A stretch of 64,000 nucleotides of DNA from Candidatus Multivorans sp. (GTDB taxonomy: Bacteria; Acidobacteriota; Thermoanaerobaculia; Multivoradales; Multivoraceae): assembly GCA_965224025.1 (NCBI GenBank), contig OZ245033.1, positions 1,984,001 to 2,048,000 of the forward strand, written 5' to 3'. Both the position numbers and the translations under genes were made by a program. The notes under the pieces were generated by a model, which worked only from the letters and a program-made list of their open reading frames with translations, had not been told where the DNA came from and made no database searches. Shown piece by piece: positions 23,031 through 63,471 of the stretch (the stretch's first letter is position 1; every line of letters starts with the position of its first letter).

Positions 23031-23317
23031 ATCAGCGTAACAGCGAATCGTACTACGACCCGGCGCAGTCGCGCCGCTCAACGCCGATGAAGTGAATCGC
23101 GTGTGGAGCGGAGCCGGCCGGAAGGCCGGCGCACCTGTACCTTTCTCGGGTGGATTCTGGTGGGTCGTTGAGAGAGGTGGAATCGACCAGTAGCCGTCGT
23201 GGCTGCGGTAGCTGTGGGAAACCGGCTTGCCGGTTTTCCAAGGTCCGGCGGGAAACGGTCTGCCGTTTTCCGCCGGACCGGCAGCTTCCGCAGCCGGGAC
23301 CGCCGGTCGGTTTCGTT

Positions 23318-23501
23318 TCCGGCCTGCCGGAGTCACTGAAGGAAGGTCGGCAAGCAGCCAGGAGCGACCACCGGCGCACTGTGCTTCGAGCACCTGGCTG
23401 GGACCCGTGCCCTGGCTGCTTCGCCGCGTTGGACGCCCAGTGGAGAGTCAGTGCCTTAGAGCACCAGTACAGGTACGGGCAGGCAACGCGGCATGCCGAC
23501 C
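23318..23501 (+). ncRNA. Putative bridge RNA with target-binding and donor-binding loops, copy 1
   Basis: Outer stem 23345-52/23494-501; loop 1 holds CCGGCGCAC (23371-79) and CTGGG (23398-402); loop 2 holds GTGGAGAGTC (23440-49) and GTACAGG (23467-73). Confidence 0.85.
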
Positions 23502-23535
23502 AGGCAACACTACCGCAAGGGAGAAGGAGGACGAG

Positions 23536-24789
23536 ATGACCAGGACGTGGTTCGTCGGCGTGGACTGGGGGTCCGAGACCCACCACGTGTGTGTGCTGGA
23601 TCGGGACGGCAAGGTGAGGGGGGAGCGGGCGTTCGACCACAGCGGCAAGGGACTTGCCGCCATGGCCGACTGGCTCCTTGGACATACCCGACCGACGTCT
23701 CCGGACGAGATCGGCGTCGCCATCGAGGTGCCGCACGGACCGGTGGTCGAGACTCTCCTGGAGCGGGGCTTCGCCGTGCATTCGATCAACCCCAAGCAGC
23801 TCGACCGCTTCAGGGACCGCTTCTCCGTCGCCGGCGCCAAGGATGACCGCCGCGATGCACGGGCGCTCGCCGCCGCGCTTCGCACCGACCCCGAGTGCCT
23901 GAACCGCGTGCAACCATCCGATGCAGCCATCGTGATGCTGCGCGAGGTGTCCCGCGGCCGCAAGCAGTTGGTCGGCCAGAAGAACCGCCTGGAGAACCAG
24001 GTCCGCGACCAGCTCTGGCGCTACTACCCGCAGTTTCTCGCCGTGGTCAAGAACGAGGTGTCGGCGCCCTTCGCGCTGGCCTTGTGGCGACTGGCGCCGA
24101 CCCCCGGCAAGGCTCGACGGCTGCGCGAAGCCACGCTCGCCAAACTGCTCAAGGAACACCGCATCCGGCGCCTGACCTCCGCCCAACTGCGCGATCAACT
24201 GCGGGCCGAGCCGATCGCCGTTTCCCCGGACACCGTTAAGGCCGCCGTCGAACACATAGGACTCCTCCGGCCGGTGCTCGACACCGTCTGCCGCCAACTC
24301 GCCGACGCCGACAAGCGGCTGGAGCGGATGACCCGCGCACTCGAGGCCCCGGCCCAACGGGAAAACGACGACGACTCCCCTAAGCCGAGCGACGCCGCCA
24401 TCCTCAGGTCGCTGCCCGGACTCGGCAAGGTCGGCCTCGCCACCCTGCTCTCCGAGGCCGATCAAAGCCTGGGCCGCAGAGACCACGAGGCACTGCGTTG
24501 CCTCTGCGGAGTGGCGCCGGTGACCGTCAAGTCCGGCAAGAAGCTCATCGTCATGCGACGACTCGCCGCCAACGAACACCTCAGCGACGCCGTCTATCAC
24601 TGGGGACGAGTCGCCATCCAGCACGACCCGATCAGCCGCGCCAAGTACGACGCCATGAAAGCCCAGGGAAAGACGCACGGACGCGCCATCAGACAACTCG
24701 TCGACCGACTCCTCGGCGTCGCCTGCGCCATGCTCCGAGACCGAACTCTCTTCGACCCCAACAAGCGATGCCATGCCCAGGTCGCATGA
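23536..24789 (+). CDS. IS110-family DEDD recombinase (417 aa)
   Basis: FVGVDWG, VAIE, KDDRRDA (DEDD); SLPGLG, GVAPVTVKSGK (Tnp domain, serine); AAGGAGG RBS. Confidence 0.95.
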   Translation: MTRTWFVGVDWGSETHHVCVLDRDGKVRGERAFDHSGKGLAAMADWLLGHTRPTSPDEIGVAIEVPHGPVVETLLERGFAVHSINPKQLDRFRDRFSVAGAKDDRRDARALAAALRTDPECLNRVQPSDAAIVMLREVSRGRKQLVGQKNRLENQVRDQLWRYYPQFLAVVKNEVSAPFALALWRLAPTPGKARRLREATLAKLLKEHRIRRLTSAQLRDQLRAEPIAVSPDTVKAAVEHIGLLRPVLDTVCRQLADADKRLERMTRALEAPAQRENDDDSPKPSDAAILRSLPGLGKVGLATLLSEADQSLGRRDHEALRCLCGVAPVTVKSGKKLIVMRRLAANEHLSDAVYHWGRVAIQHDPISRAKYDAMKAQGKTHGRAIRQLVDRLLGVACAMLRDRTLFDPNKRCHAQVA

Positions 24790-24851
24790 CCTCCCTGACC
24801 CGCAGCAGCCTCCCCAAAACACACTTGCTAAAGGGTGGAGAGTCCCAGTAG

Positions 24852-36561: not shown

Positions 36562-36838
36562 AGGAAGGTGTGACTCTAGCTGAGTTGTAGCTCGGAGGAT
36601 GGTCGCCGCTTTGCGGCGGGTCTTTTCCCAGAAGCCGGCCAGAGGGCCGGCGCACCTGTACCTTTCCGGGATGCATTCTGGCGTGTCGTTGAGAGAGGTG
36701 GAATGGACCAGTAGCCGTCGTGGCTGCGGTAGCTGTGGGAAACCGGCTTGCCGGTTTTCCAAGGTCCGGCGGGAAACGGTCTGCCGTTTTCCGCCGGACC
36801 GGCAGCTTCCGCAGCCGAGACCGCCGGTCGGTTGCGTC

Positions 36839-37022
36839 TCCGGCCTGCCGGAGTCACTGAAGGAAAGTCGGCAAGCAGCCAGGAGCGACCACCGGCGCAC
36901 TGTGCTTCGAGCACCTGGCTGGGACCCGTGCCCTGGCTGCTTTGCCGCGTTGGACGCCCAGTGGAGAGTCAGTGCCTTAGAGCACCAGTACAGGTACGGG
37001 CAGGCAACGCGGCATGCCGACC
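36839..37022 (+). ncRNA. Putative bridge RNA, copy 2
   Basis: All four guide segments identical to copy 1 (CCGGCGCAC at 36892-36900). Confidence 0.82.
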
Positions 37023-37056
37023 AGGCAACACTACCGCAAGGGAGAAGGAGGACGAG

Positions 37057-38312
37057 ATGATCAGGACGTGGTTCGCCGGCGTGGACTGGGGGTCCGAAAC
37101 CCACCACGTGTGTGTTTGCTGGGTCGGGACGGCAAGGTGAGGGGGGAGCGGGCGTTCGACCACAGCGGCAAGGGACTTGCCGCCATGGCCGACTGGCTCC
37201 TTGGACATGCACGACCGACGCCTCCGGGCGAGATCGGCGTCGCCATCGAGGTGCCGCACGGACCGGTCGTCGAGTGCCTCCTGGAGCGAGGCTTCGCCGT
37301 CCATTCGATCAACCCCAAGCAGCTCGACCGCTTCAGGGACCGCTTCTCCGTCGCCGGCGCCAAGGATGACCGCCGCGATGCACGGGCGCTCGCCGCCGCG
37401 CTTCGCACCGACCCCGAGTGCCTGAACCGCGTGCAACCATCCGATGCCGCCATCGTCATGCTGCGCGAGGTGTCCCGCGCCCGCAAGCAGTTGGTCAACC
37501 AGAAGAACCGCCTGGAGAACCAGGTCCGCGACCAGATCTGGCGCTACTACCCGCAGTTTCTCGCCGTGGTCAAGAACGAGGTGTCGGCGCCCTTCGCGCT
37601 GGCCTTGTGGCGACTGGCGCCGACCCCCGGCAAGGCTCGACGGCTGCGCGAGACCACGCTCGCCAAGCTGCTCAAGGAACACCGCATCCGGCGCCTGACT
37701 GCCGCCCAACTGCGCGATCAACTGCGGGCCGAGCCGATCGCCGTTTCCCCGGACACCGTTAAGGCCGCCGTCGAACACATAGGACTCCTCCGGCCGGTGC
37801 TCGACACCGTCTGCCGCCAACTCGCCGACGCCGACAAGCGGCTGGAGCGGATGACCCGCGCACTCGAGGCCCCGGCCCAACGGGAAAACGACGACGACTC
37901 CCCTAAGCCGAGCGACGCCGCCATCCTCAGGTCGCTGCCCGGACTCGGCAAGGTCGGCCTCGCCACCCTGCTCTCCGAGGCCGATCAAAGCCTGGGCCGC
38001 AGAGACTACGAGGCACTGCGTTGCCTCTGCGGAGTGGCGCCGGTGACCGTCAAGTCCGGCAAGAAGCTCATCGTCATGCGACGACTCGCCGCCAACGAGC
38101 ACCTCAGCGACGCCGTCTATCACTGGGGACGAGTCGCCATCCAGCACGACCCGATCAGCCGCGCCAAGTACGACGCCATGAAAGCCGAAGGCAAGACACA
38201 CGGACGAGCCATCAGACAACTCGTCGATCGACTCCTCGGCGTCGCCTGCGCCATGCTCCGAGACCGCACTCTCTTCGACCCCAACAAGAGAAGCCATGCC
38301 CAGGTCGCATGA
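37057..38312 (+). pseudogene. IS110 recombinase with a +2 frameshift near 37116
   Basis: GTGTGTGT-TT-GCTGG here versus GTGTGTGT-GCTGG in copies 1 and 3. Confidence 0.88.
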
Positions 38313-38413
38313 CCTGCCTGACCCGCAGCAACCTCCCCAAAACACACTTGCTAAAGGGTGGAGAGTCCCAGTTTTCCAGAAGGGCGGCGCAGCCGGCTCC
38401 TGGGGGCCAACTT

Positions 38414-39614: not shown

Positions 39615-41315
39615 GTGACCGCCATCGAACTCCTGAACGCAGATCCCCTGCTAGCTGCCGCTCTGGACCGGCGCCGCCGCCAGTGGCGCGAGGCGGACGC
39701 TACAGTTCGCCTGTGGTCCGGCGACGGTTCGCTCTGGACGGATTCCGGCGAGGCGGAGTGGCTGGGTTGGCTCGACGTCGAGCGGCTCGGCCGCGTGTCG
39801 GTCTCGAAGCCTGACGGCGACCGCGTCGAGATGGCGGCTGCCGACCTTGCGGAGCATCTCGCCGGCCGACCCTTTGAACGCTGCCTGCTGCTCGGCATGG
39901 GCGGCTCGGCGCTCGGCGCGGACCTGCTCTGGCGGGCGCTGCCGCGCCGGGTCGATGCCGAGTACATCGTCCTCGACACGACGGATCCGCGGGAGATCGC
40001 GTCGGCTCTGGATGGTGTCGCGCCCGCGTCGTTGAAGGTCATCGCGGCGTCCAAGTCGGGCGGCACGATCGAAACGAGGCTGGCGTTCGAGCTGCTGCTC
40101 GACCGGCTGGGGCCGGCGGCTTCGTCGGCGGCGTTGGCGATCACGGATCCGGGCTCCGCGCTCGAAGAACGCGCCCGGGCCGCCGGTGCCGGGGTCGTCT
40201 TCGGCCACCCGGACATCGGCGGGCGGTTCTCCGTGCTGTCGGCGTTCGGCCTGGCGCCGGCGGCGGTAGCGGGCATCGACGTGGAGCCGCTTCTTGGGAG
40301 CGCGCGGGCGATGGCCGCGGCGTGCCGGCGCGGCGGAACGGATTCAGAGACGAACCCCGGGGTCGAGCTGGGGTTGCTGCTCGCGGCGGCGCACGACTGC
40401 GGCCGCGACAAGCTCTATCTTCATGCCCCGGCCAAGTGCGCGGCGATGGCCGCGTGGGTCGAGCAACTGATCGCCGAGTCCCTCGGAAAGGGCGACGTAC
40501 TGCTGTTGCCTGTCGCTGCGGCCGGCGTGCCGGCGGAGCCGAACCCGGACCGGCTCGACGTCGTGCTCGGAAACGTGAGTGGCAACGGTGCGCAGGCCTC
40601 GGCGCCGGTGCCTGACGGTCCGGTCGTCCGGATCGGCGCGGACCTTCCGGTCGACCTCGGCGGCGAGTTCTTCCGCTGGCAGTTCGCCACGGCCGTGGCC
40701 GGAGCACTGCTGGGCCTCAACCCCTTCGACCAGCCGGACGTGGAGTCGTCCAAGGTCGTCACCCGGCGCTACGTCGAGCGGATGAAGGCCGGCGATGCGC
40801 CGGCGCCCGGTGGCGTGGTCCGGCTGAGCGAGGTCAGCGAGCTAGGGCTCGCCCAGCTCCTGGGCACGCACCTCGGGACGTTCCCGGAGAGCGGCTACGC
40901 CGTCATCTCGGCCTATCTTGATCGCAGCGACCGCAACCGGGAGCTGCTCCAGACTCTGCGCCGGCGCGTCGCCGACGTCACAGGCGGCGCGTCCGTGCTC
41001 GGTTTCAGTCCGAGCTTCCTGCACTCGACGGGACAGGCGCACAAGGGCGGCCCCAACCGCGGTCTGTTCCTGCAGATCACCGCCGATCCGCCGGCTGCGG
41101 ACATCTCGGTTCCAGGCGTTGGCCTGACCTTCGGCCAGGTCCAGCTCGCCCAGGCCTGGGGCGACTACGAAGTGCTCGTCGAGCGGAAGCGTCGGGTGCT
41201 CGCCGTCCATCTCGACGGCGAGGTGGAGGAAGGGGTGCGGCGGTTGGTGACTGGGTGCGCCGGCGTCCCCGCCGGCTCGCCGCCGAAGGCGGCCAAGGAA
41301 ACGCGCCGGCCGTAA
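39615..41315 (+). CDS. pgi: Glucose-6-phosphate isomerase (TAL/PGI-type PGI domain)
   Basis: GMGGSALG, SKSGGTIET, DIGGRFSVLS, EQLIAESLGK, NPFDQPDVE, HSTGQAHKGG. Confidence 0.85.
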   Translation: MTAIELLNADPLLAAALDRRRRQWREADATVRLWSGDGSLWTDSGEAEWLGWLDVERLGRVSVSKPDGDRVEMAAADLAEHLAGRPFERCLLLGMGGSALGADLLWRALPRRVDAEYIVLDTTDPREIASALDGVAPASLKVIAASKSGGTIETRLAFELLLDRLGPAASSAALAITDPGSALEERARAAGAGVVFGHPDIGGRFSVLSAFGLAPAAVAGIDVEPLLGSARAMAAACRRGGTDSETNPGVELGLLLAAAHDCGRDKLYLHAPAKCAAMAAWVEQLIAESLGKGDVLLLPVAAAGVPAEPNPDRLDVVLGNVSGNGAQASAPVPDGPVVRIGADLPVDLGGEFFRWQFATAVAGALLGLNPFDQPDVESSKVVTRRYVERMKAGDAPAPGGVVRLSEVSELGLAQLLGTHLGTFPESGYAVISAYLDRSDRNRELLQTLRRRVADVTGGASVLGFSPSFLHSTGQAHKGGPNRGLFLQITADPPAADISVPGVGLTFGQVQLAQAWGDYEVLVERKRRVLAVHLDGEVEEGVRRLVTGCAGVPAGSPPKAAKETRRP

Positions 41316-41403
41316 GGCCGGCACTGCGAGCGGTCAGAGTGGAGCGAGGCTGGCGCCTCGCCGTTTCTTCTCAGAAGCCGGCGGGGACGCCGGCGCACCC
41401 AGT
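41250..41403. repeat. REPIN-like inverted REP doublet
   Basis: ACTGGGTGCGCCGGCGTCCCCGCCGGC (41250-76) and its exact reverse complement (41377-403). Confidence 0.85.
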
Positions 41404-41627
41404 GCGAGGCGCCGTGCCGAGAACCGGCGGGGACGCCGGCGCACCTGTACCTTTCTCGGGTGGATTCTGGTGGGTCGTTGAGAGAGGTGGAATCGACCAG
41501 TAGCCGTCGCGGCTGCGGTAGCTGTGGGAAACCGGCTTGCCGGTTTTCCAAGGTCCGGCGGGAAACGGTCTGCCGTTTTCCGCGGGACCGGCAGCTTCCG
41601 CAGCCGAGACCGCCGGTCGGTTGCGTC

Positions 41628-41811
41628 TCCGGCCTGCCGGAGTCACTGAAGGAAGGTCGGCAAGCAGCCAGGAGCGACCACCGGCGCACTGTGCTTCGAG
41701 CACCTGGCTGGGACCCGTGCCCTGGCTGCTTCGCCGCGTTGGACGCCCAGTGGAGAGTCAGTGCCTTAGAGCACCAGTACAGGTACGGGCAGGCAACGCG
41801 GCATGCCGACC
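41628..41811 (+). ncRNA. Putative bridge RNA, copy 3
   Basis: Guide segments and stems identical to copy 1. Confidence 0.83.
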
Positions 41812-41845
41812 AGGCAACACTACCGCAAGGGAGAAGGAGGACGAG

Positions 41846-43099
41846 ATGACCAGGACGTGGTTCGTCGGCGTGGACTGGGGGTCCGAGACCCACCACGTGT
41901 GTGTGCTGGATCGGGACGGCAAGGTGAGGGGGGAGCGGGCGTTCGACCACAGCGGCAAGGGACTTGCCGCCATGGCCGACTGGCTCCTTGGACATACCCG
42001 ACCGACGTCTCCGGACGAGATCGGCGTCGCCATCGAGGTGCCGCACGGACCGGTGGTCGAGACTCTCCTGGAGCGGGGCTTCGCCGTGCATTCGATCAAC
42101 CCCAAGCAGCTCGACCGCTTCAGGGACCGCTTCTCCGTCGCCGGCGCCAAGGATGACCGCCGCGATGCACGGGCGCTCGCCGCCGCGCTTCGCACCGACC
42201 CCGAGTGCCTGAACCGCGTGCAACCATCCGATGCAGCCATCGTGATGCTGCGCGAGGTGTCCCGCGGCCGCAAGCAGTTGGTCGGCCAGAAGAACCGCCT
42301 GGAGAACCAAGTCCGCGACCAGATCTGGCGCTACTACCCGCAGTTTCTCGCCGTGGTCAAGAACGAGGTGTCGGCGCCCTTCGCGCTGGCCTTGTGGCGA
42401 CTGGCGCCGACCCCCGGCAAGGCTCGACGGCTGCGCGAAGCCACGCTCGCCAAACTGCTCAAGGAACACCGCATCCGGCGCCTGACTGCCGCCCAACTGC
42501 GCGATCAACTGCGGGCCGAGCCGATCGCCGTTTCCCCGGACACCGTTAAGGCCGCCGTCGAACACATAGGACTCCTCCGGCCGGTGCTCGACACCGTCTG
42601 CCGCCAACTCGCCGACGCCGACAAGCGGCTGGAGCGGATGACCCGCGCACTCGAGGCCCCGGCCCAACGGGAAAACGACGACGACTCCCCTAAGCCGAGC
42701 GACGCCGCCATCCTCAGGTCGCTGCCCGGACTCGGCAAGGTCGGCCTCGCCACCCTGCTCTCCGAGGCCGATCAAAGCCTGGGCCGCAGAGACCACGAGG
42801 CACTGCGTTGCCTCTGCGGAGTGGCGCCGGTGACCGTCAAGTCCGGCAAGAAGCTCATCGTCATGCGACGACTCGCCGCCAACGAACACCTCAGCGACGC
42901 CGTCTATCACTGGGGACGAGTCGCCATCCAGCACGACCCGATCAGCCGCGCCAAGTACGACGCCATGAAAGCCCAGGGAAAGACGCACGGACGCGCCATC
43001 AGACAACTCGTCGACCGACTCCTCGGCGTCGCCTGCGCCATGCTCCGAGACCGAACTCTCTTCGACCCCAACAAGCGATGCCATGCCCAGGTCGCATGA
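41846..43099 (+). CDS. IS110-family DEDD recombinase
   Basis: Differs from copy 1 by about 2 residues. Confidence 0.95.
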   Translation: MTRTWFVGVDWGSETHHVCVLDRDGKVRGERAFDHSGKGLAAMADWLLGHTRPTSPDEIGVAIEVPHGPVVETLLERGFAVHSINPKQLDRFRDRFSVAGAKDDRRDARALAAALRTDPECLNRVQPSDAAIVMLREVSRGRKQLVGQKNRLENQVRDQIWRYYPQFLAVVKNEVSAPFALALWRLAPTPGKARRLREATLAKLLKEHRIRRLTAAQLRDQLRAEPIAVSPDTVKAAVEHIGLLRPVLDTVCRQLADADKRLERMTRALEAPAQRENDDDSPKPSDAAILRSLPGLGKVGLATLLSEADQSLGRRDHEALRCLCGVAPVTVKSGKKLIVMRRLAANEHLSDAVYHWGRVAIQHDPISRAKYDAMKAQGKTHGRAIRQLVDRLLGVACAMLRDRTLFDPNKRCHAQVA

Positions 43100-43162
43100 C
43101 CTCCCTGACCCGCAGCAGCCTCCCCAAAACACACTTGCTAAAGGGTGGAGAGTCCCGGTGGG

Positions 43163-43426
43163 CTAGCGCCGGCCCCGCCGCCCGCTCGCCGGCTTGCCCA
43201 TCAGCTCGTCGAGCCCGACGTTGAACTCCGCGACGATCCGTATCAGCACGTCCAGGCTGACCCGGAGTTCGTCCCGCTCGATCCGTGACAGGTCGGACGG
43301 CGGAATGCCGACGCGCTCCGCCAGCGCGGGCTGCGTCAGCTTGTTCTTGCGCCGCAGCCGCCGGATCCGATGACCCATGAGCTGGACCTGTTGTGCGGGT
43401 GCTTCCTTGTTCATCGCCTGCGCCAT
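43163..43426 (-). CDS. XRE-family HTH regulator (start uncertain)
   Basis: GHRIRRLRRKNKLTQPALAERVGI..SDLSRIER. Confidence 0.75.
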   Translation of the reverse strand: MAQAMNKEAPAQQVQLMGHRIRRLRRKNKLTQPALAERVGIPPSDLSRIERDELRVSLDVLIRIVAEFNVGLDELMGKPASGRRGRR

Positions 43427-43583
43427 TCGAGAGTCCGGCAATTCTAGGAGCTTGCGCCGCAGAACGCTACGGGTGAGTTCGCGGCGCAAGCTCCTGGAAG
43501 CGGACGGGATGGGCCGAAACACCGAGCCTGCGAGGGGTTTCGGGGCGGTAGCGGTGCAGGCGGTTCAGGATGTCGACCTGAGA

Positions 43584-47916: not shown

Positions 47917-48029
47917 GGCAGCGCGGAGCGTAGCCCAGGTGCGCCGGCACCGTGGCGTCCGCGCGCCCGAAGACGGCCACGCGGGTCAGCTAGCATGTCA
48001 AGTTGGTCTCTTGAAGAGGGAGGTTCAAG

Positions 48030-50158: not shown

Positions 50159-53100
50159 CAACAAGCGCGGGCGGCGGGAAGCCGCCCGTTCGCCGGCGCT
50201 ACCGGCCGGCGATCGGCCCCAGGCTGAAGCCTCTGCTGTGGGTGGTCTTCGGACTGTTCGCTCTGCTGGCGGTGAACTCGTTCTACCTCTCCGGCGTCCG
50301 CGTCGCGGAGGCGGCGACCGGCGAGACGTACCAGAACTGGTTCTACATCTCGATGTTCCTGCTCCATCTGGCGGTGGGTGGTCTGTTCGTGGCGCCGGTG
50401 ATCTGGTTCGGCTTGGCGCACATGCGCAACGCGCGAAATCGCCCCAACCGGCGCGCGGTCAAGGTCGGTTACGCCCTGTTCGGGACCGCGCTCGTGCTGC
50501 TCTTCAGCGGCATCGTGCTGACGCGGATCGAAGGTGTGATCACGGTGAACGATCCGGCGGTCCGCGGCGTCGCCTACTGGCTGCACGTCCTGGCGCCCCT
50601 GGTGGCTGCCTGGCTGTTCGTGCTGCACCGGCTTGCGGGCAAGCGCATCAACTGGCGGATCGGCGCGCGCGTGGCGGCCGCCGCCGTGGTCCTGGTCGGC
50701 GTGGCGCTGGTGCTGCAGTTCCAGGATCCGCGGGCGTGGAACGTGGAAGGACCGGAGTCGGGCGAGCAGTACTTCTTCCCGGCCCTGGCGCGCACCGCGA
50801 GCGGCGGTTTCATCCCCGAGCGGGCATTGATGAACGACGCTTACTGCGTCGACTGTCACGCCGACATCCACGGCCGATGGACCTACAGCGCTCACCGCTT
50901 CAGCTCCTTCAACAACCCCGCCTACAGCTTCTCCGTCCAGGAGACCCGCGAGAAGGCGTACGAGCGCTCGGGCGACGTGCAGGCGTCGCGCTTCTGCGCC
51001 GGCTGCCACGACCCGGTCGTGTTCTTCTCGGGCGCCTTCGACGACCCGGAGTTCGACGTCGACCAGCCGGCGGCCCACGCCGGAATCACCTGCACGTCCT
51101 GCCATGCGATCACCCATGTCAACAGTCCGCGCGGCAACGCCGACTACACGATCGAGGAGCCGCAGCACTATCCGTTCGCCTTCGCGGATTCGGCTTTCCT
51201 CAAGTTCGTCAACCACCAACTGGTCAAGGCGAAGCCCGAACTGCACAAGCGAACCTTCCTCAAGCCCCTGCACACGACCGCGGAGTTCTGCGGCACCTGC
51301 CACAAGGTCCACTTGCCGGAGGAGTTGAACCACTACAAGTTTCTGCGCGGGCAGAACCACTACGACTCGCACCTTCTCTCCGGCGTGTCCGGGCACGGGG
51401 TGGCGAGCTTCTACTATCCGCCCGAGGCCAAGCCGAACTGCAACGGCTGCCACATGGACCTGCTGCCGTCGGACGACTTCGGTTCCCGCCGGTACCCGGC
51501 GAGCGACCAGCCTGGTGTCACCCAGGTCCACGACCACCTGTTCCCGTCCGCCAACACCGGGATTCCCCACCTGCTCGACTTCCCGGACTGGGTGATCGAG
51601 GCGCACCGCGCGTTCAACGAGGGCGTCGTTGACATCGACATCTTCGGCGTCAAGCCGGGCGGCGCGATCGAGGGCGAGTTGATCGCGCCGGTGCGCCCCG
51701 AGATACCGGCGCTCGCGGCGGGCGAGGAGTACCTGCTGGAGGTCGTCGTGCGGACCCTCGGTCTGGGCCACCACCTGACTCAGGGCACGGCCGACTCCAA
51801 CCAGCTCTGGCTCGACATCGCGGTGCGCGACGACAGCGGCCGGCTGGTGGGCCGGAGCGGCGGACTGGGCGAAGGCAACCGGGTAGACCCGTGGTCGCAC
51901 TTCATCAACGTCTACATGCTCGACCGCGACGGCGCGCGCATCGATCGCCGCAACGCAGAGGACATCTTCGTGCCGCTCTACGATCACCAGATTCCGCCGG
52001 GGGCGGGCGACGTGACCCACTACCGGATGGAAGTTCCGCGCGCCGGCGCCACCACGAGCCTGACGGTCGAGGCGGTGCTCCGCTACCGCAAGTTCGACAC
52101 GAAGTACCTGCGCTACATCTACGGCGAGGAGACGGTCAACGAACTGCCGATCTTGGACCTGGCCCGGGACGCGGTGACCTTCCCGGTCGGCCCTGGGAAC
52201 CCGGGCGTCTCGCCCGCATTCGGTCCTGGGAACGCGGGCGTCTCGCCCGCATCCGGCCCTGGGAACGCGGGCGTCCCGCCCGCATCCGGTCCTGGGAGCG
52301 CGGGCGTCTCGCCCGCATCCGGTCCGGTCGTCCGTGCACCCGCCAAGCAGTTGTGGCAACGCTGGAACGACTACGGCATCGGCCTCCTGCGCAAGGGCGG
52401 CACCGGTCGCGGCGAGCTCCGGCAGGCGATCGAGGCCTTCACTCGCGTGGAGGAGTTGGGCCGTCCGGACGGGCCGCTCAACCTCGCCCGGGTGTACCTG
52501 GCGCAGGGCACGGTCACGGATGATGCGATCGCCGCGCTCGAACGGGCCGCCACCTTCGAGCCGCCGGCCCCGGCCTGGTCGGTGGCCTGGTTCAGCGGAC
52601 TGGTCAACTTCCAGAACGGCGCCGTGGACGAGGCGATCGCGAACTTCCGCTCGATCCTCGAGGCTGACAGCGAAGAGATGCGGCGACGCGGCTTCGACTT
52701 CAGCCGCGACGTGCGGCTTCAGAACCAGCTCGGTCTGGCCCTGTTCGAGCGGGCCAAGCGGGAGCGTGGGCCGGCCCGTGCGGAGGCGCGGACGGGACGG
52801 CTCAATGAGGCGAGGGAGTCGTTCGAGCGCGGACTGGCGATCGACCCGGAGAACGTGACCGCGCACTACAACCTGGGTCTGATTTACTCTCAACTCGGCG
52901 ACCGCGAGGCGGCCGACCGGCATCAGGCACTCCACGCGAAGTACAAGCCGGACGACAACGCCCGCGACCGGGCGATCGCCATCGCACGCCTCGCCGACCC
53001 GGCCGCCGATCATGCCGCGGAGGCGATCGTGATCTACGACCTGCATAGGCCCGAGCGCTTCGAAGGCGACCGGCCGGGGGTCACCGGAGCCGGCGGTTGA
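50155..53100 (+). CDS. Membrane-anchored multiheme cytochrome c with TPR repeats
   Basis: N-terminal TM helices; five CxxCH (CVDCH, CAGCH, CTSCH, CGTCH, CNGCH); AHYNLG TPR. Confidence 0.87.
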   Translation: MTTSAGGGKPPVRRRYRPAIGPRLKPLLWVVFGLFALLAVNSFYLSGVRVAEAATGETYQNWFYISMFLLHLAVGGLFVAPVIWFGLAHMRNARNRPNRRAVKVGYALFGTALVLLFSGIVLTRIEGVITVNDPAVRGVAYWLHVLAPLVAAWLFVLHRLAGKRINWRIGARVAAAAVVLVGVALVLQFQDPRAWNVEGPESGEQYFFPALARTASGGFIPERALMNDAYCVDCHADIHGRWTYSAHRFSSFNNPAYSFSVQETREKAYERSGDVQASRFCAGCHDPVVFFSGAFDDPEFDVDQPAAHAGITCTSCHAITHVNSPRGNADYTIEEPQHYPFAFADSAFLKFVNHQLVKAKPELHKRTFLKPLHTTAEFCGTCHKVHLPEELNHYKFLRGQNHYDSHLLSGVSGHGVASFYYPPEAKPNCNGCHMDLLPSDDFGSRRYPASDQPGVTQVHDHLFPSANTGIPHLLDFPDWVIEAHRAFNEGVVDIDIFGVKPGGAIEGELIAPVRPEIPALAAGEEYLLEVVVRTLGLGHHLTQGTADSNQLWLDIAVRDDSGRLVGRSGGLGEGNRVDPWSHFINVYMLDRDGARIDRRNAEDIFVPLYDHQIPPGAGDVTHYRMEVPRAGATTSLTVEAVLRYRKFDTKYLRYIYGEETVNELPILDLARDAVTFPVGPGNPGVSPAFGPGNAGVSPASGPGNAGVPPASGPGSAGVSPASGPVVRAPAKQLWQRWNDYGIGLLRKGGTGRGELRQAIEAFTRVEELGRPDGPLNLARVYLAQGTVTDDAIAALERAATFEPPAPAWSVAWFSGLVNFQNGAVDEAIANFRSILEADSEEMRRRGFDFSRDVRLQNQLGLALFERAKRERGPARAEARTGRLNEARESFERGLAIDPENVTAHYNLGLIYSQLGDREAADRHQALHAKYKPDDNARDRAIAIARLADPAADHAAEAIVIYDLHRPERFEGDRPGVTGAGG
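52189..52325 (+). repeat. Four tandem 33-bp REP-like units, in frame
   Basis: Consensus GGYCCTGGGAACGCGGGCGTCTCGCCCGCATCC at 52189, 52222, 52255, 52288; encodes GPGNAGVSPAS-type units. Confidence 0.92.
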
Positions 53101-58966: not shown

Positions 58967-60355
58967 ATGAGGCAATTCAAGACGTTGCGAGGAGCTTGCG
59001 CGGCGGAAACTGGGTGCGCCGGCGCCCCCGCCGGCATCCGGTGCGAAGCGTCGGCCTTCTGTAGTTCTGCCGCCGTAGCGCTAGCGGTTGCCGCCGGCTG
59101 CTTACTTCTGATCGCCTGCGGGTCCACCGAACTCGTCACTCTGCCGGAGATCGACACCTCCGGTTCGCCGGACGGCATCGTCGACCTTCCCGCCGACGCG
59201 CCCGAGGTGTTCCACAAGTACTTCGACCGGTACGCCTGGTTCCCGACGCCGGACGGCAGGCGGATCCACTTCCTCGTCTCGAGCGGCTGGACCCGCGACC
59301 AGATCAAGCACGGCCTCAACGTGATGGAGCATCTGCTGGCGGACCACCCGGGCTCGGTCTACGGCGACGACAAGTCCGGGATCGCCGTGGCGATGGCGGA
59401 CCGCAAGGCGACGATGGTGTTCTTCGACACGGAGGACGACCTGCGCCAGGCGATGAGCGAGGGACTGGCCGACGCGACGGATCTCAGCATGCAGGACCTG
59501 CGCGCGAACGAATGTCCGGCCCCGGGCGACGCGGACTACATGGGTCATGTGACCAGGGACGCCGCCTACGAGGAGATCTGGCACCTGATCCACGACTACG
59601 GGATCAAGCCGACCCTCACTTCGATGATCGCCGAGATGAGGACGGCGAACGACGAAGCGGCGACCAAGAGCTGGTACGCGTGGCCCCGTGACGTGCCGGA
59701 CGACCATCCGAACGAGTACATGGGCGCCCTGATCGACAACTACTACGACCTCTGGACGGTGCCGCCGACCGTGTACGAGGGGCGCGACATCGCGCCCGAC
59801 GAGATTCCCGAGGGATACTCCCACTTCGGGCAGTACTTCGCGGGCAGTCGCGCGGCCATGCCGGAGAAGGACCCGCTCGGCTACGCGTTGGTCACGAACT
59901 TCGTCGGGCCGTATCTGACCTACACGCCGGAACTGCCGCTGGACTTCAGCGGCACGTTCTCGATGACGTTCGCCCCGGAGGTGCGGTACACGATGAAGAC
60001 CCAGCATCTGCGGAACGTCGCGCTCACCGGCGACGGCGACGCGGACCTGCGCGGCAACGCTCACGACAATGTGCTCACCGGCAACGGCGGCGCCAACCGG
60101 CTCGAGGGCGGCGGCGGCAACGACATGCTTGACGGCGGCGACGGCGACGACACGGCGGTCTTCTCGGCCCCGGCGGCCGAGTACGAAGTCGCCGCCGGTG
60201 AGGACGGAGTGACGGTGACCGACTCGCAGCCGGACCGCGACGGGACGGACACGCTGCGAGCGGTTGAGTTCCTGCAGTTCAGCGATGCCCTCGTGGACCA
60301 GGTGGGCGGTCGGGTCTGGGAGCGCGGCGTGCAACTGGACCAGCCGGAACAGTAG
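58967..60355 (+). CDS. Lipoprotein with zincin-like EEIWH domain and RTX-type calcium-binding repeats
   Basis: LIAC lipobox; YEEIWH; GGGGNDMLDGGDGDD; DGTDTLRAVEFLQFSD. Confidence 0.75.
   Translation: MRQFKTLRGACAAETGCAGAPAGIRCEASAFCSSAAVALAVAAGCLLLIACGSTELVTLPEIDTSGSPDGIVDLPADAPEVFHKYFDRYAWFPTPDGRRIHFLVSSGWTRDQIKHGLNVMEHLLADHPGSVYGDDKSGIAVAMADRKATMVFFDTEDDLRQAMSEGLADATDLSMQDLRANECPAPGDADYMGHVTRDAAYEEIWHLIHDYGIKPTLTSMIAEMRTANDEAATKSWYAWPRDVPDDHPNEYMGALIDNYYDLWTVPPTVYEGRDIAPDEIPEGYSHFGQYFAGSRAAMPEKDPLGYALVTNFVGPYLTYTPELPLDFSGTFSMTFAPEVRYTMKTQHLRNVALTGDGDADLRGNAHDNVLTGNGGANRLEGGGGNDMLDGGDGDDTAVFSAPAAEYEVAAGEDGVTVTDSQPDRDGTDTLRAVEFLQFSDALVDQVGGRVWERGVQLDQPEQ
59009..59035 (-). repeat. Single REP (unoccupied IS110 target) inside a CDS
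   Basis: ACTGGGTGCGCCGGCGCCCCCGCCGGC. Confidence 0.8.
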
Positions 60356-63346: not shown

Positions 63347-63471
63347 ACTGGATGCGCCGGCGTCCTCGCCGGCTGCCGCCGCAGGCGGCCAGGAACACGC
63401 GCCGGCCGACGGCCGGCACCTTCGCTTCGCGGCGGCGCCCGGATGCCGGCGAGGACGCCGGCGCACCCAGT
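63347..63471. repeat. REPIN-like inverted REP doublet between convergent genes
   Basis: ACTGGATGCGCCGGCGTCCTCGCCGGC / GCCGGCGAGGACGCCGGCGCACCCAGT; spacer homologous to that of 41250-41403. Confidence 0.85.

Follow-up and report, generated by a model that had tools for sequence, protein, structure and literature searches.

A predicted bridge RNA of an acidobacterial IS110 element matches the feet of host REP hairpins

The window analysed here, a 64,000-nucleotide stretch of a Candidatus Multivorans sp. genome (GCA_965224025.1, contig OZ245033.1, positions 1,984,001 to 2,048,000), holds a 1710-bp IS110-family element in three copies. Every copy is inserted between GCCGGCGCA-CC and CAGT (CGGT at copy 3), where a GC-rich hairpin has its foot, and the question that this locus raises is what leads the element to such sites. 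The left flanks read GCCGGC-CGGAAG-GCCGGCGCACC at copy 1, GCCGGC-CAGAGG-GCCGGCGCACC at copy 2 and ACCGGC-GGGGAC-GCCGGCGCACC at copy 3, with right flanks of CAGT, CAGT and CGGT, which is exactly the hairpin-foot form that a first-pass annotation of the sequence had described. A further GCCGGCGCACC at 47938 (minus strand) is a chance match within coding sequence and not a REP.

BLAST of the genome with copy 3 as the query returned 12 full-length copies. The recombinase of copy 3 is assigned to the IS110 family by its domain matches, both above cut-offs (Pfam PF01548, 113 bits, E 1.5e-32; PF02371, 49 bits, E 8e-13). In copy 2 two inserted bases, TT, at IS nt 459-460 break the ORF after 27 codons. 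Terminal inverted repeats are absent, the IS ends not being inverted repeats of each other, and a short core, CC, stands at both junctions in all copies (CC before TGTACC..., and ...GAGTCC at the element end). Because this core is present at both junctions, the boundary of copy 3 could equally be drawn 2 bp leftward. The features are collected in Table 1.

Enumeration of the target across the genome, as the first-pass annotation had proposed, yielded 17 insertion events, all at CCGGCG(C/T)A-CC-C(A/G)G(T/C) and none at unrelated sequence, together with 38 empty perfect 14-mer targets. The left flank CCGGCG(C/T)ACC is found in all 17 events and the right flank C(A/G)G(T/C) in the 15 with a right end; a ACCTGTACCTTTC at genome position 2187190 is a chance match and was left out of the left-end count. 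Perfect stems of 6 bp or more (strict test) are present at 12 of the 17 insertions and a stem shortened by a mismatch at two more, including copy 3, whilst three (13638, 35976 and 2681648) lack such a hairpin, so that the rule of a hairpin at every insertion stands for the three copies in the window but not genome-wide.

Table 1. Features of the IS110 element, its predicted bridge RNA and its REP targets in the window
Feature	Coordinates	Strand	Description
IS110 element copy 1	23136..24845	+	Intact 417-aa ORF; target GCCGGCGCA-CC-CAGT
IS110 element copy 2	36657..38368	+	Member of second sub-lineage
IS110 element copy 3	41446..43155	+	1710 bp; drawn from three-copy alignment and flanks
Recombinase gene of copy 3	41846..43099	+	417 aa; DEDD_Tnp_IS110 and Transposase_20 domains
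Predicted bridge RNA, conserved core	41656..41812	+	Two modules of stem, internal loop and hairpin, the first with the target-binding and the second with the donor-binding loop
Left target guide CCGGCGCAC (predicted)	41681..41689	+	Same sense as left target plus first core C; would pair with bottom strand
Right target guide GCUGGG (predicted)	41707..41712	+	Complementary to top-strand CC-CAGC
Left donor guide GUGGAGAGUC (predicted)	41750..41759	+	Same sense as the element's right end (GGAGAGTCC)
Right donor guide GUACAGG (predicted)	41777..41783	+	Complementary to the left end of the element (CC-TGTAC)
Occupied REP of copy 1	23113..23135	+	GCCGGCC-GGAA-GGCCGGC-GCACC
Occupied REP of copy 2	36634..36656	+	GCCGGCC-AGAG-GGCCGGC-GCACC
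Occupied REP of copy 3	41423..41445	+	Hairpin ACCGGCG-GGGA-CGCCGGC plus GCA-CC; right half-site CGGT at 43156-43159
Empty perfect target	41250..41264	-	Inverted; tail-out doublet with 41389-41403
Empty perfect target GCCGGCGCACCCAGT	41389..41403	+	On 7-bp/4-nt hairpin
Empty perfect target	59009..59023	-	On hairpin
Empty perfect target	63457..63471	+	On hairpin; right member of doublet

On the evidence of guide matches, covariation and fold conservation, the left non-coding end of the element is read as encoding a canonical bridge RNA. The consensus fold of 15 sequences has 33 pairs, 11 of them with compensatory changes, and leaves the guides unpaired, and the single-sequence fold of the core gives z = -2.29. 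The target-loop guides, CCGGCG(C/U)AC on the left and GCUGGG on the right, are 9 and 6 nt long and the donor guides 10 and 7 nt, in the published strand pattern of bridge RNAs in which, according to the accessible part of PMC11208160, the bottom strand is bound by 8-9 nt of the 5' side and the top strand by 4-7 nt of the 3' side. One guide base, at 41687, is polymorphic among the copies, being C or U; both IS sub-lineages of the genome show the polymorphism, and T is found at this position in contigs from four public runs. A scan of 41200-43300 against Rfam 15 at E up to 1 gave only a chance match to a miRNA family (E 0.75), and Rfam 15 may hold no bridge-RNA model. The bridge RNA is presumably produced, and a circular intermediate could supply a junction promoter, for which the candidate motifs are TTGCTA at the right end and TACCTT at the left end, 17 nt apart across the joined ends; no circle junction was seen in Logan contigs of the four runs. 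The bridge RNAs of one copy may also act on other copies.

The guide assignment is confirmed by related elements in other genomes, where guides and flanks change together. Among relatives whose proteins are 56-76% identical, the GCUGGG segment becomes AAAAGG, AAAUGG, GGGAGG, ACAAGG, GGAGGG, ACCGGG or ACUGGG, and the right flanks are the reverse complement of the guide, namely CCTTTT, CCATTT, CCTCCC, CCTTGT, CCCTCC, CCCGGT and CCCAGT. The right junction was located at 63 of 80 loci of relatives, and the right flank is usually the reverse complement of the guide; the exceptions are L001, L022, L025, L048, L051, L063 and L075, and sites with CAGT for CAGC by wobble form further exceptions to exact complementarity. 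The left guide likewise tracks the left flank, for example with GCGATCCC, GTGGACGC and GTGATAGCCC, and the element at L021, with C in the left guide where the present element has G, is inserted in a sister REP, CCCGCGCACCCAGC. A second IS110 paralogue that might target sister REPs was not found in the present genome (tblastn, E 1e-5).

It is therefore highly probable that the element carries at its left end a bridge RNA that directs insertion to the feet of REP hairpins. The two guides of the target-binding loop would jointly specify CCGGCG(C/T)A-CC-CAGC, and the donor-binding loop (GUGGAGAGUC / GUACAGG) would recognise the ends of the element itself, joined about the same CC core. What the target guides specify would be the 3' stem arm and conserved head of a genus-wide REP family, so that the element would land at REP hairpin feet and always in one orientation. 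At most natural sites one or two of the pairs would be of G-U type, namely rG:dT at the right-hand position farthest out, rU:dG at CGGT targets and rU:dG where the U-variant guide meets GCACC.

Deviations from the guides at occupied sites are mostly wobbles of this G-U type. The pair census for the present genome (15 sites x 15 positions) comprises 207 Watson-Crick pairs, 16 wobbles and 2 mismatches, and that for 32 related insertions (L001-L032) comprises 446, 28 and 6, so the expected bias of mismatches towards wobble-compatible changes is seen in both sets. Four of the six true mismatches in relatives are C.C at left position 3 (L026, L028, L029 and L031) and the others lie at left position 1 (L021) and right position 4 (L022); tolerance is therefore wider than wobble pairs. 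The insertions at 829449 and 3855042 combine a C-variant guide with a GTACC target, so that a C.A mismatch stands in cis, and require either trans action or a later change of the guide. No cis association of guide variant with target variant was seen, the U guide standing with 2 T- and 3 C-targets and the C guide with 2 T- and 8 C-targets.

The right guide had at first been taken as CUGGG but is 6 nt long, GCUGGG, and a new consequence of this length is that the commonest target, CAGT, already contains an rG:dT pair. Nor is A-to-G the one change that such a guide could accept, as had been suggested, given that C-to-T opposite any guide G is equally wobble-compatible. Occupancy follows the same lines, with the reservation that the sites are non-independent and that genes, in which an insertion would not persist, contain many of the non-compatible 14-mers: minority targets compatible by wobble or Watson-Crick pairing are occupied at 6/16 sites against 0/66 for other one-mismatch 14-mers (Fisher p 2e-5), the REP-like CCCGCGCACCCAGT class alone giving 0/17 (p 0.007); all compatible classes reach 15/63 against 0/54 for the sister family CCCGCGCACCCAG[T/A/C] (p 4e-5); and CCGGCGTACCCAGC, a perfect match to the U-variant guide, is occupied at 4/5 sites against 9/47 for the majority class (p 0.011).

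Copy 3 itself had been offered as the example of a wobble landing, and here the overall statistical support for wobble tolerance is not proof, since the orthologous intergenic REP of two congeners (L094 and L095, flanks about 86-87% identical) is empty and reads GCCGGCGCACCCAGT, with CCCAGT. After insertion at an ordinary CAGT site, mutation could thus have produced the CGGT of copy 3 and of the split copy, with no wobble used. The empty form of the exact copy 3 site was not recovered in reads or contigs, and Logan contigs of the four runs contain no clean empty-site join for it; in one contig of run X2 the stretch between 41229 and 43202 is replaced by 79 other letters, and this contig is read as a relative that lacks both the IS and the REP cluster. 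Three other congeners (G043, G044 and G054, 93% identical) were considered as the pre-insertion state and set aside as uninformative, for they have a different intergenic region without a REP. Later mutation is nevertheless unlikely, because the A-to-G state recurs at four insertions with U in the guide (copy 3, the split copy, L001 and L025), other right-flank deviations among 47 insertions are confined to positions 3 and 4 of L022, copy 3, at 99.8% identity to another copy, is young, and five empty CCGGCGCACCCGGT sites exist in this genome. Moreover, tolerance of rU:dG or rG:dT has been measured for ISPpu10 and IS621, according to the accessible portions of the published accounts.

The target sequence is abundant in its own right. 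CCGGCGCACCCRG occurs four times in the window (41251-41263 minus, 41390-41402 plus, 59010-59022 minus and 63458-63470 plus) against 0.04 expected, with four or more reached in none of 100 shuffles, and the four perfect unoccupied targets listed by the first-pass annotation are all present, verified as 15-mers. That at 41389..41403 precedes the REP occupied by copy 3 by 46 bp and has the same orientation. The two doublets do have spacer sequence in common, as had been noticed (66 of 75 aligned columns identical, 41250-41322 versus 63347-63418), but the left member of the second, 63347-63361 (minus strand), has a C-to-T change in the core (GCCGGCGCATCCAGT) and hence is not a perfect target. Pairs within 250 bp number 10 tail-out and 8 tail-in genome-wide among 297 loose-pattern sites (control 91, noisy). 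The 13-mer has 40 copies in the genome and one in a reversed-sequence control, and 28 of the 38 empty perfect sites lie outside ORFs as called by a crude GC3-based caller covering 86% of the genome; the view of an RNA guide set against a multicopy, probably mostly intergenic palindrome is supported by these empty copies as well as by the guide matches and covariation. Some of the 10 'genic' empty sites, such as 41250, look like ORF over-extension.

The target is a genus-wide REP family, found in 16 of 18 congeners, whereas 12 genomes from other genera have 0-1 copies each. Congeners whose assemblies, which are fragmented, yielded no relative of the recombinase hold 20 to 251 copies of the 15-mer (for example G017 with 251 and G012 with 235). 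A RAYT gene is absent from the window, as had been said, and none was detected in the whole genome, with no match to PF01797 or NF047646 at E up to 1 and a best E of only 0.38 in tblastn with a congener RAYT. A Y1 match is present in 13 of the 18 congeners, and the RAYT-like gene seen in congeners is a single-copy Y1 transposase gene (77 bits against NCBIfam NF047646, cut-off 80). The suggestion of a RAYT flanked by this REP finds a counterpart in two of the five RAYT-like genes examined, which lie between inverted REP tails of a sister subfamily.

A recombinase that chose its sites mainly by DNA hairpin structure, with the matching RNA segments incidental, would also place 14 of 17 insertions at a hairpin foot, and a target stem-loop raises the efficiency and fidelity of ISPpu10 in the accessible part of a 2026 preprint (10.64898/2026.03.19.712850). 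This is quite improbable, given the three insertions without a hairpin, the covariation of guides with flanks across relatives and the fact that about 54 hairpin-bearing sister REPs, different at one guide position, are never occupied. As a requirement the hairpin is rejected, for a perfect stem is no commoner at occupied sites (12/17) than at empty perfect ones (24/38; Fisher p 0.76). That the palindromes are by-products or satellites of the IS rather than an independent host REP would accord with the missing RAYT gene and with the finding that all five GTACC-type left flanks are occupied or remnants, a single empty GTACC-CAGC site being left, but is hardly credible beside the many 15-mers of congeners without a detected IS, the inverted sister REPs around congener RAYT-like genes, the lack of any common sequence between IS ends and hairpin, and the footprint-free insertion described for IS110 (Durrant 2024, PMC11208160, in its accessible part; family knowledge).

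Guidance by a bridge RNA would make the present element a further natural example of RNA-guided IS110 landing in REPs, here in an acidobacterial genome. IS621 of Escherichia coli is reportedly the IS110-family element of Choi and colleagues (2003). The accessible portions of Durrant et al. 2024 (PMC11208160) place its bridge RNA at the left end with two internal loops, and the present element resembles it, within those portions, in this arrangement, in its DEDD and Tnp domains, in 5' sides that pair with the bottom and 3' sides with the top strand, core included, in a natural target made of the 3' stem arm and conserved head of a REP, and in a commonest natural target one rG:dT pair off the guide-encoded one. 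Unlike IS621 as described there, it has a CC rather than a CT core, a 6-nt right guide, a left end of about 400 nt with an extra structured module, an acidobacterial host and a left guide that is polymorphic (C/U) among copies in one genome, and it is known from sequence alone.

ISPpu10 and ISPpu9 of Pseudomonas putida KT2440 are REP-specific IS110 elements (Tobes and Pareja 2006, PMC1525189, accessible part), with a GC-rich 5' stem-loop in the target whose 3' arm is the left target (10.64898/2026.03.19.712850, likewise in part), as here. Their targets often form convergent pairs, as here, and are mostly intergenic, as those of the present element may be by the count of a crude gene caller. 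A U.G wobble at the left interface and mismatches at distal left-guide positions are shared with ISPpu10, and the action of recombinase and RNA in trans, listed for ISPpu10, would be a further likeness. By those partial accounts, a CT core there contrasts with the CC core of the present element, what the hairpin does was measured for ISPpu10 whereas occupied sites here show no hairpin enrichment, and, unlike the host of the P. putida elements, this genome is without a RAYT partner of its REPs. In terms of REP / RAYT systems (Nunvar et al. 2010, PMC2817692, as far as its accessible part goes), the family is likewise a short palindrome with a conserved head, is present in tens to hundreds of copies and forms clusters and inverted doublets, and congeners have a single-copy Y1 gene, set between two inverted REPs in the two cases noted above; unlike those systems, the head is GCACCCAG(T/A) instead of GT(A/G)G, the phylum is Acidobacteriota, this genome has no RAYT, and the RAYT-flanking REPs belong to a sister subfamily (GGCCCGC arm) and not to the subfamily targeted by the IS. 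For IS621 and ISPpu10 the literature already describes REP targeting, tolerance of wobbles and stem-loops at the target, and the supplementary tables of Durrant et al. 2024 and of the ISPpu10 preprint may list relatives of the present element or the same mismatch rules.

What is new, besides the rG:dT pair of the commonest target, is that one guide base is polymorphic (C/U) where targets vary (C/T) and that, across the six genomes compared, the right guide tracks whichever REP variant dominates, with GCUGGG or ACUGGG where this is CAGT and ACCGGG in the one genome where it is CGGT (33 vs 11). Three target positions vary among occupied sites, left position 7 (C/T), a right A/G and a right T/C, and all three face a guide G or U able to pair with both variants. 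It is possible, if doubtful, that bridge-RNA guides and REP subfamilies co-diversify within one genus, the element keeping a 'degenerate' guide. If this is true, natural bridge RNAs would cover a diversifying repeat family through wobble-capable bases.

The understanding of how IS110 elements work is unchanged by this case, which follows the known behaviour of IS621 and ISPpu10. It is nonetheless a well-resolved natural case of bridge-RNA targeting in Acidobacteriota, a phylum far from the model systems. The element has a CC core and a right guide of 6 nt, and occupied and empty sites can be compared by the dozen within a single genome. The sites form a natural record of tolerated deviations between guide and target, mostly rG:dT and rU:dG together with distal left-guide mismatches, and the related elements of the same genus and order add at least seven other guide pairs, a ready covariation set for the engineering of bridge recombinases.

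The window contains three copies of a 1710 bp IS110-family element (see table), each preceded on its 5' side by a GC-rich hairpin with GCCGGCGCA-CC at its end; on the 3' side, copies 1 and 2 have CAGT and copy 3 has CGGT. Because CC also terminates the element itself (...GGAGAGTCC), the core dinucleotide is taken to be CC and the target is reconstructed as GCCGGCGCA-CC-C(A/G)GT. The first-pass annotation had reported four perfect empty targets in the window, and CCGGCGCACCCRG is recovered at each of them, against 0.04 occurrences by chance; four were reached in 0 of 100 shuffles. The spacer that it described as common to the doublets 41250/41389 and 63347/63457 is indeed shared (66 of 75 aligned columns), and the second doublet has a core change in its left member. 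The three copies (1 and 3 from one sub-lineage, 2 from the other) lie in the same orientation inside 20 kb (23136-43155, spacings of 13.5 and 4.8 kb), and as direct repeats could mediate deletions.

Coordinates of the element, its predicted guides and associated repeats (window positions unless prefixed by G000, the source genome, or G010, a congener)
Feature	Position	Basis or remark
IS110-family element, copy 1	23136-24845	repeat finding and three-way alignment
IS110-family element, copy 2	36657-38368	repeat finding and three-way alignment
IS110-family element, copy 3	41446-43155	repeat finding and three-way alignment
Recombinase ORF, copy 3	41846-43099	both Pfam domains of IS110 recombinases
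Left target guide, CCGGCGCAC	41681-41689	same sense as left target plus first core C
Right target guide, GCTGGG	41707-41712	complementary to CC-CAGC
Left donor guide, GTGGAGAGTC	41750-41759	same sense as the element's right end
Right donor guide, GTACAGG	41777-41783	complementary to CC-TGTAC, the element's left end
IS left-end module	41498-41630	IS nt ~53-185
Left-end module relatives	near G000:C1 1302035, 2474161, 3672706, 4048787, 3408901	86-88% identity
Split IS copy	G000:C1 13083-13635 and 5044243-5045399	break at nt 551/554; outside the window
CCGTGCGCCCG-TCAT-CGGGCGCACGG hairpins, examples	G000:C1 229498, 283514, 1605776, 1738960, 2662229, 4569891
Same hairpin, target occupied by IS	G000:C1 2681648
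CCTGGGAACGCGGGCGTCTCGCCCGCATCCGG hairpin repeat	52155-52352	5-6 tandem units of 33 bp
~110-nt repeat	43441-43553	83-94% identical matches at many places
IS110 relative (locus L085, G010:C1:3707000-3712500)	G010:C1 3710535-3711740	56% identical
RAYT-like gene	G010:C1 3709622-3709840	<1 kb from this IS110 relative

Four guide segments can be placed in the left end of copy 3. For comparison, the region upstream of the gene was aligned from 80 public loci encoding relatives of the recombinase, and the aligned guide segments were set against the insertion flanks. At least seven alternative right guides occur in these relatives and, in the 63 loci where the right junction could be located, the right flank is usually the reverse complement of the guide (AAAAGG/CCTTTT, GGGAGG/CCTCCC and ACCGGG/CCCGGT, for instance). 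The exceptions are loci L001, L022, L025, L048, L051, L063 and L075, together with CAGT sites used with a CAGC-encoding guide. Changes in the left flank are likewise matched by the left guide. Folded as a consensus, 15 sequences form two stem/internal-loop/hairpin modules; compensatory changes are seen at 11 of the 33 pairs, and the guides fall within the unpaired loops. For what is a predicted RNA, the guide assignment at the left end of the element is taken as established at the level of sequence.

The source genome (5.14 Mb in three contigs, the window being G000:C1:1984001-2048000) was enumerated with BLAST and end-motif searches, which give 17 insertion events: 12 full copies, two copies without IS nt 49/61-139, one copy split by ~15.4 kb across the contig origin and two left-end remnants. 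The left flank is CCGGCG(C/T)ACC in all 17, and the right flanks of 15 insertions are CAGT (nine), CAGC (four) and CGGT (two), the split copy providing the second wobble-type site in the genome. The 417-aa ORF is intact in 10 of 14 copies examined; copy 2 has an early frameshift, and three copies have in common the loss of 1 nt close to the gene's 3' end. Set beside the 17 occupied sites are 38 empty copies of the 14-mer CCGGCGCACCCAGT, and the target 13-mer occurs 40 times against once in a reversed-sequence control. The empty 14-mers are intergenic in 28 of 38 cases, as judged by a crude GC3-based caller whose ORFs cover 86% of the genome, and 24 of the 38 have a perfect stem. Under a strict hairpin test 12 of the 17 occupied sites pass, two have a shortened stem and three lack a hairpin; with this same test no hairpin enrichment is found at occupied over empty sites (p 0.76).

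The target encoded by the guides is CCGGCG(C/T)A-CC-CAGC; an rG:dT pair is therefore needed already at CAGT, the majority site. When each copy is scored with its own guide (15 sites by 15 positions), the pairs comprise 207 Watson-Crick, 16 wobble and two true mismatches, both C.A at left position 7. Among REP-targeting relatives, 32 insertions give 446 Watson-Crick pairs, 28 wobbles and six mismatches, all but one at distal left positions (1 and 3). Occupancy agrees with the wobble bias of this census: minority targets compatible by Watson-Crick or wobble pairing are occupied in 6 of 16 cases, against 0 of 66 for other one-mismatch 14-mers, and none of the 54 sister REPs of the source genome (CCCGCGCACCCAG[T/A/C]), which differ at one guide position, is occupied. 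Sites are treated as independent here, and genic and intergenic ones are pooled, which makes these comparisons and their p-values rough. Guides bearing U at the relevant base used CGGT in four insertions: copy 3 and the split copy in the source genome, L001 and L025 elsewhere. Copy 3 itself probably landed in CGGT through a G-U pair, but two congeners have CCCAGT in an empty orthologous REP flanked by the same pair of genes. Neither insertion at unrelated sequence nor an absence of wobble bias was found.

The guide itself is polymorphic. Ten copies have C and five have T at left guide base 41687, which opposes the sole varying left-target position (C/T). The split is seen within both sub-lineages, and T is also present in contigs of four public runs from at most three studies. 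Two GTACC-CAGC sites hold a U-guide copy, a perfect 14/14 match, and this class is occupied at 4 of 5 sites, the majority class at 9 of 47 (p 0.011, rough for the reasons given above). Copy by copy, guide and target variants show no association in the source genome, which fits trans action without being evidence for it. Between genomes the right guide tracks the dominant REP head: empty CAGT and CGGT sites number 38 and 5 in G000 and, in five other genomes, 41 and 6 (G031), 99 and 6 (G032), 223 and 35 (G033) and 10 and 1 (G034), all with right guide (G/A)CUGGG, and 11 and 33 in G035, where it is ACCGGG.

Of 18 congeners sampled, 16 carry the target 15-mer, in 3 to 251 copies; in other genera of the order (12 genomes) it occurs 0-1 times. 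Three whole-genome searches found no Y1/RAYT gene in the source genome. A Y1 match occurs in 13 of the 18 congeners, with one or two genes each, and the two genes that were scored reach 77 bits with the NCBIfam REP-associated tyrosine transposase model (cut-off 80). In two of five congeners examined, the RAYT-like gene lies between inverted sister-subfamily REPs (GCGGGCC-AGAA-GGCCCGC-GCACCCAG), the arrangement described as defining for RAYTs (PMC2817692). Median 15-mer copy number is 83 in congeners with a Y1 gene and 11.5 in those without (p 0.007, with kin non-independent); recombinase relatives are found in 13 of 42 congeners. On the basis of the 15-mer in congeners and the REP-flanked genes, the target is read as belonging to a true REP family, of which it would comprise the conserved head and the 3' stem arm, the source genome lacking the RAYT. 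In G010, a RAYT-like gene and an IS110 relative are close neighbours.

Several other repeats were noted. The hairpin CCGTGCGCCCG-TCAT-CGGGCGCACGG often precedes ATGGCACG and the same IS target, which in one case is occupied, so at least two hairpin families share the target tail. The IS left-end module, two near-identical stem-closed hairpins, recurs outside the IS at 4-5 places, each just inside the apparent end of another transposon (repeated GGAAAGTGAGCCAC sites) and, in the one case examined, adjoining an rve/Mu-type transposase gene; part of it is absent from two IS copies and one left-end remnant. The ~15.4-kb insert of the split copy has repeated, transposon-end-like GTGCGAGA-like motifs at both termini. 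The CCTGGGAACGCGGGCGTCTCGCCCGCATCCGG repeat is the most abundant 16-mer family of the genome (~85 and 65 copies of two loop variants), and the ~110-nt repeat, matched in nearly every congener, is a separate small multicopy element.

REPs are described as IS targets by Tobes and Pareja 2006 (PMC1525189). The natural target of IS621 is a REP, its commonest site being one rG:dT pair off the guide-encoded one (PMC11208160), and ISPpu10 is reported to act in trans, with the REP stem-loop as second target determinant, a U.G wobble, and a left guide tolerant at its distal positions (10.64898/2026.03.19.712850). Among the listed papers on IS110 and RAYT, no title or abstract opening deals with co-variation of guide and REP. 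The first-pass observation of occupied, empty and wobble sites side by side at a REP-like palindrome is confirmed, and its interpretation, an RNA guide directed at a multicopy, mostly intergenic repeat, is supported. The element belongs to the already known REP-targeting kind of IS110 and its novelty is modest; it differs from IS621 and ISPpu10 in its CC core, 6-nt right guide, long left end, host phylum and guide polymorphism within one genome.
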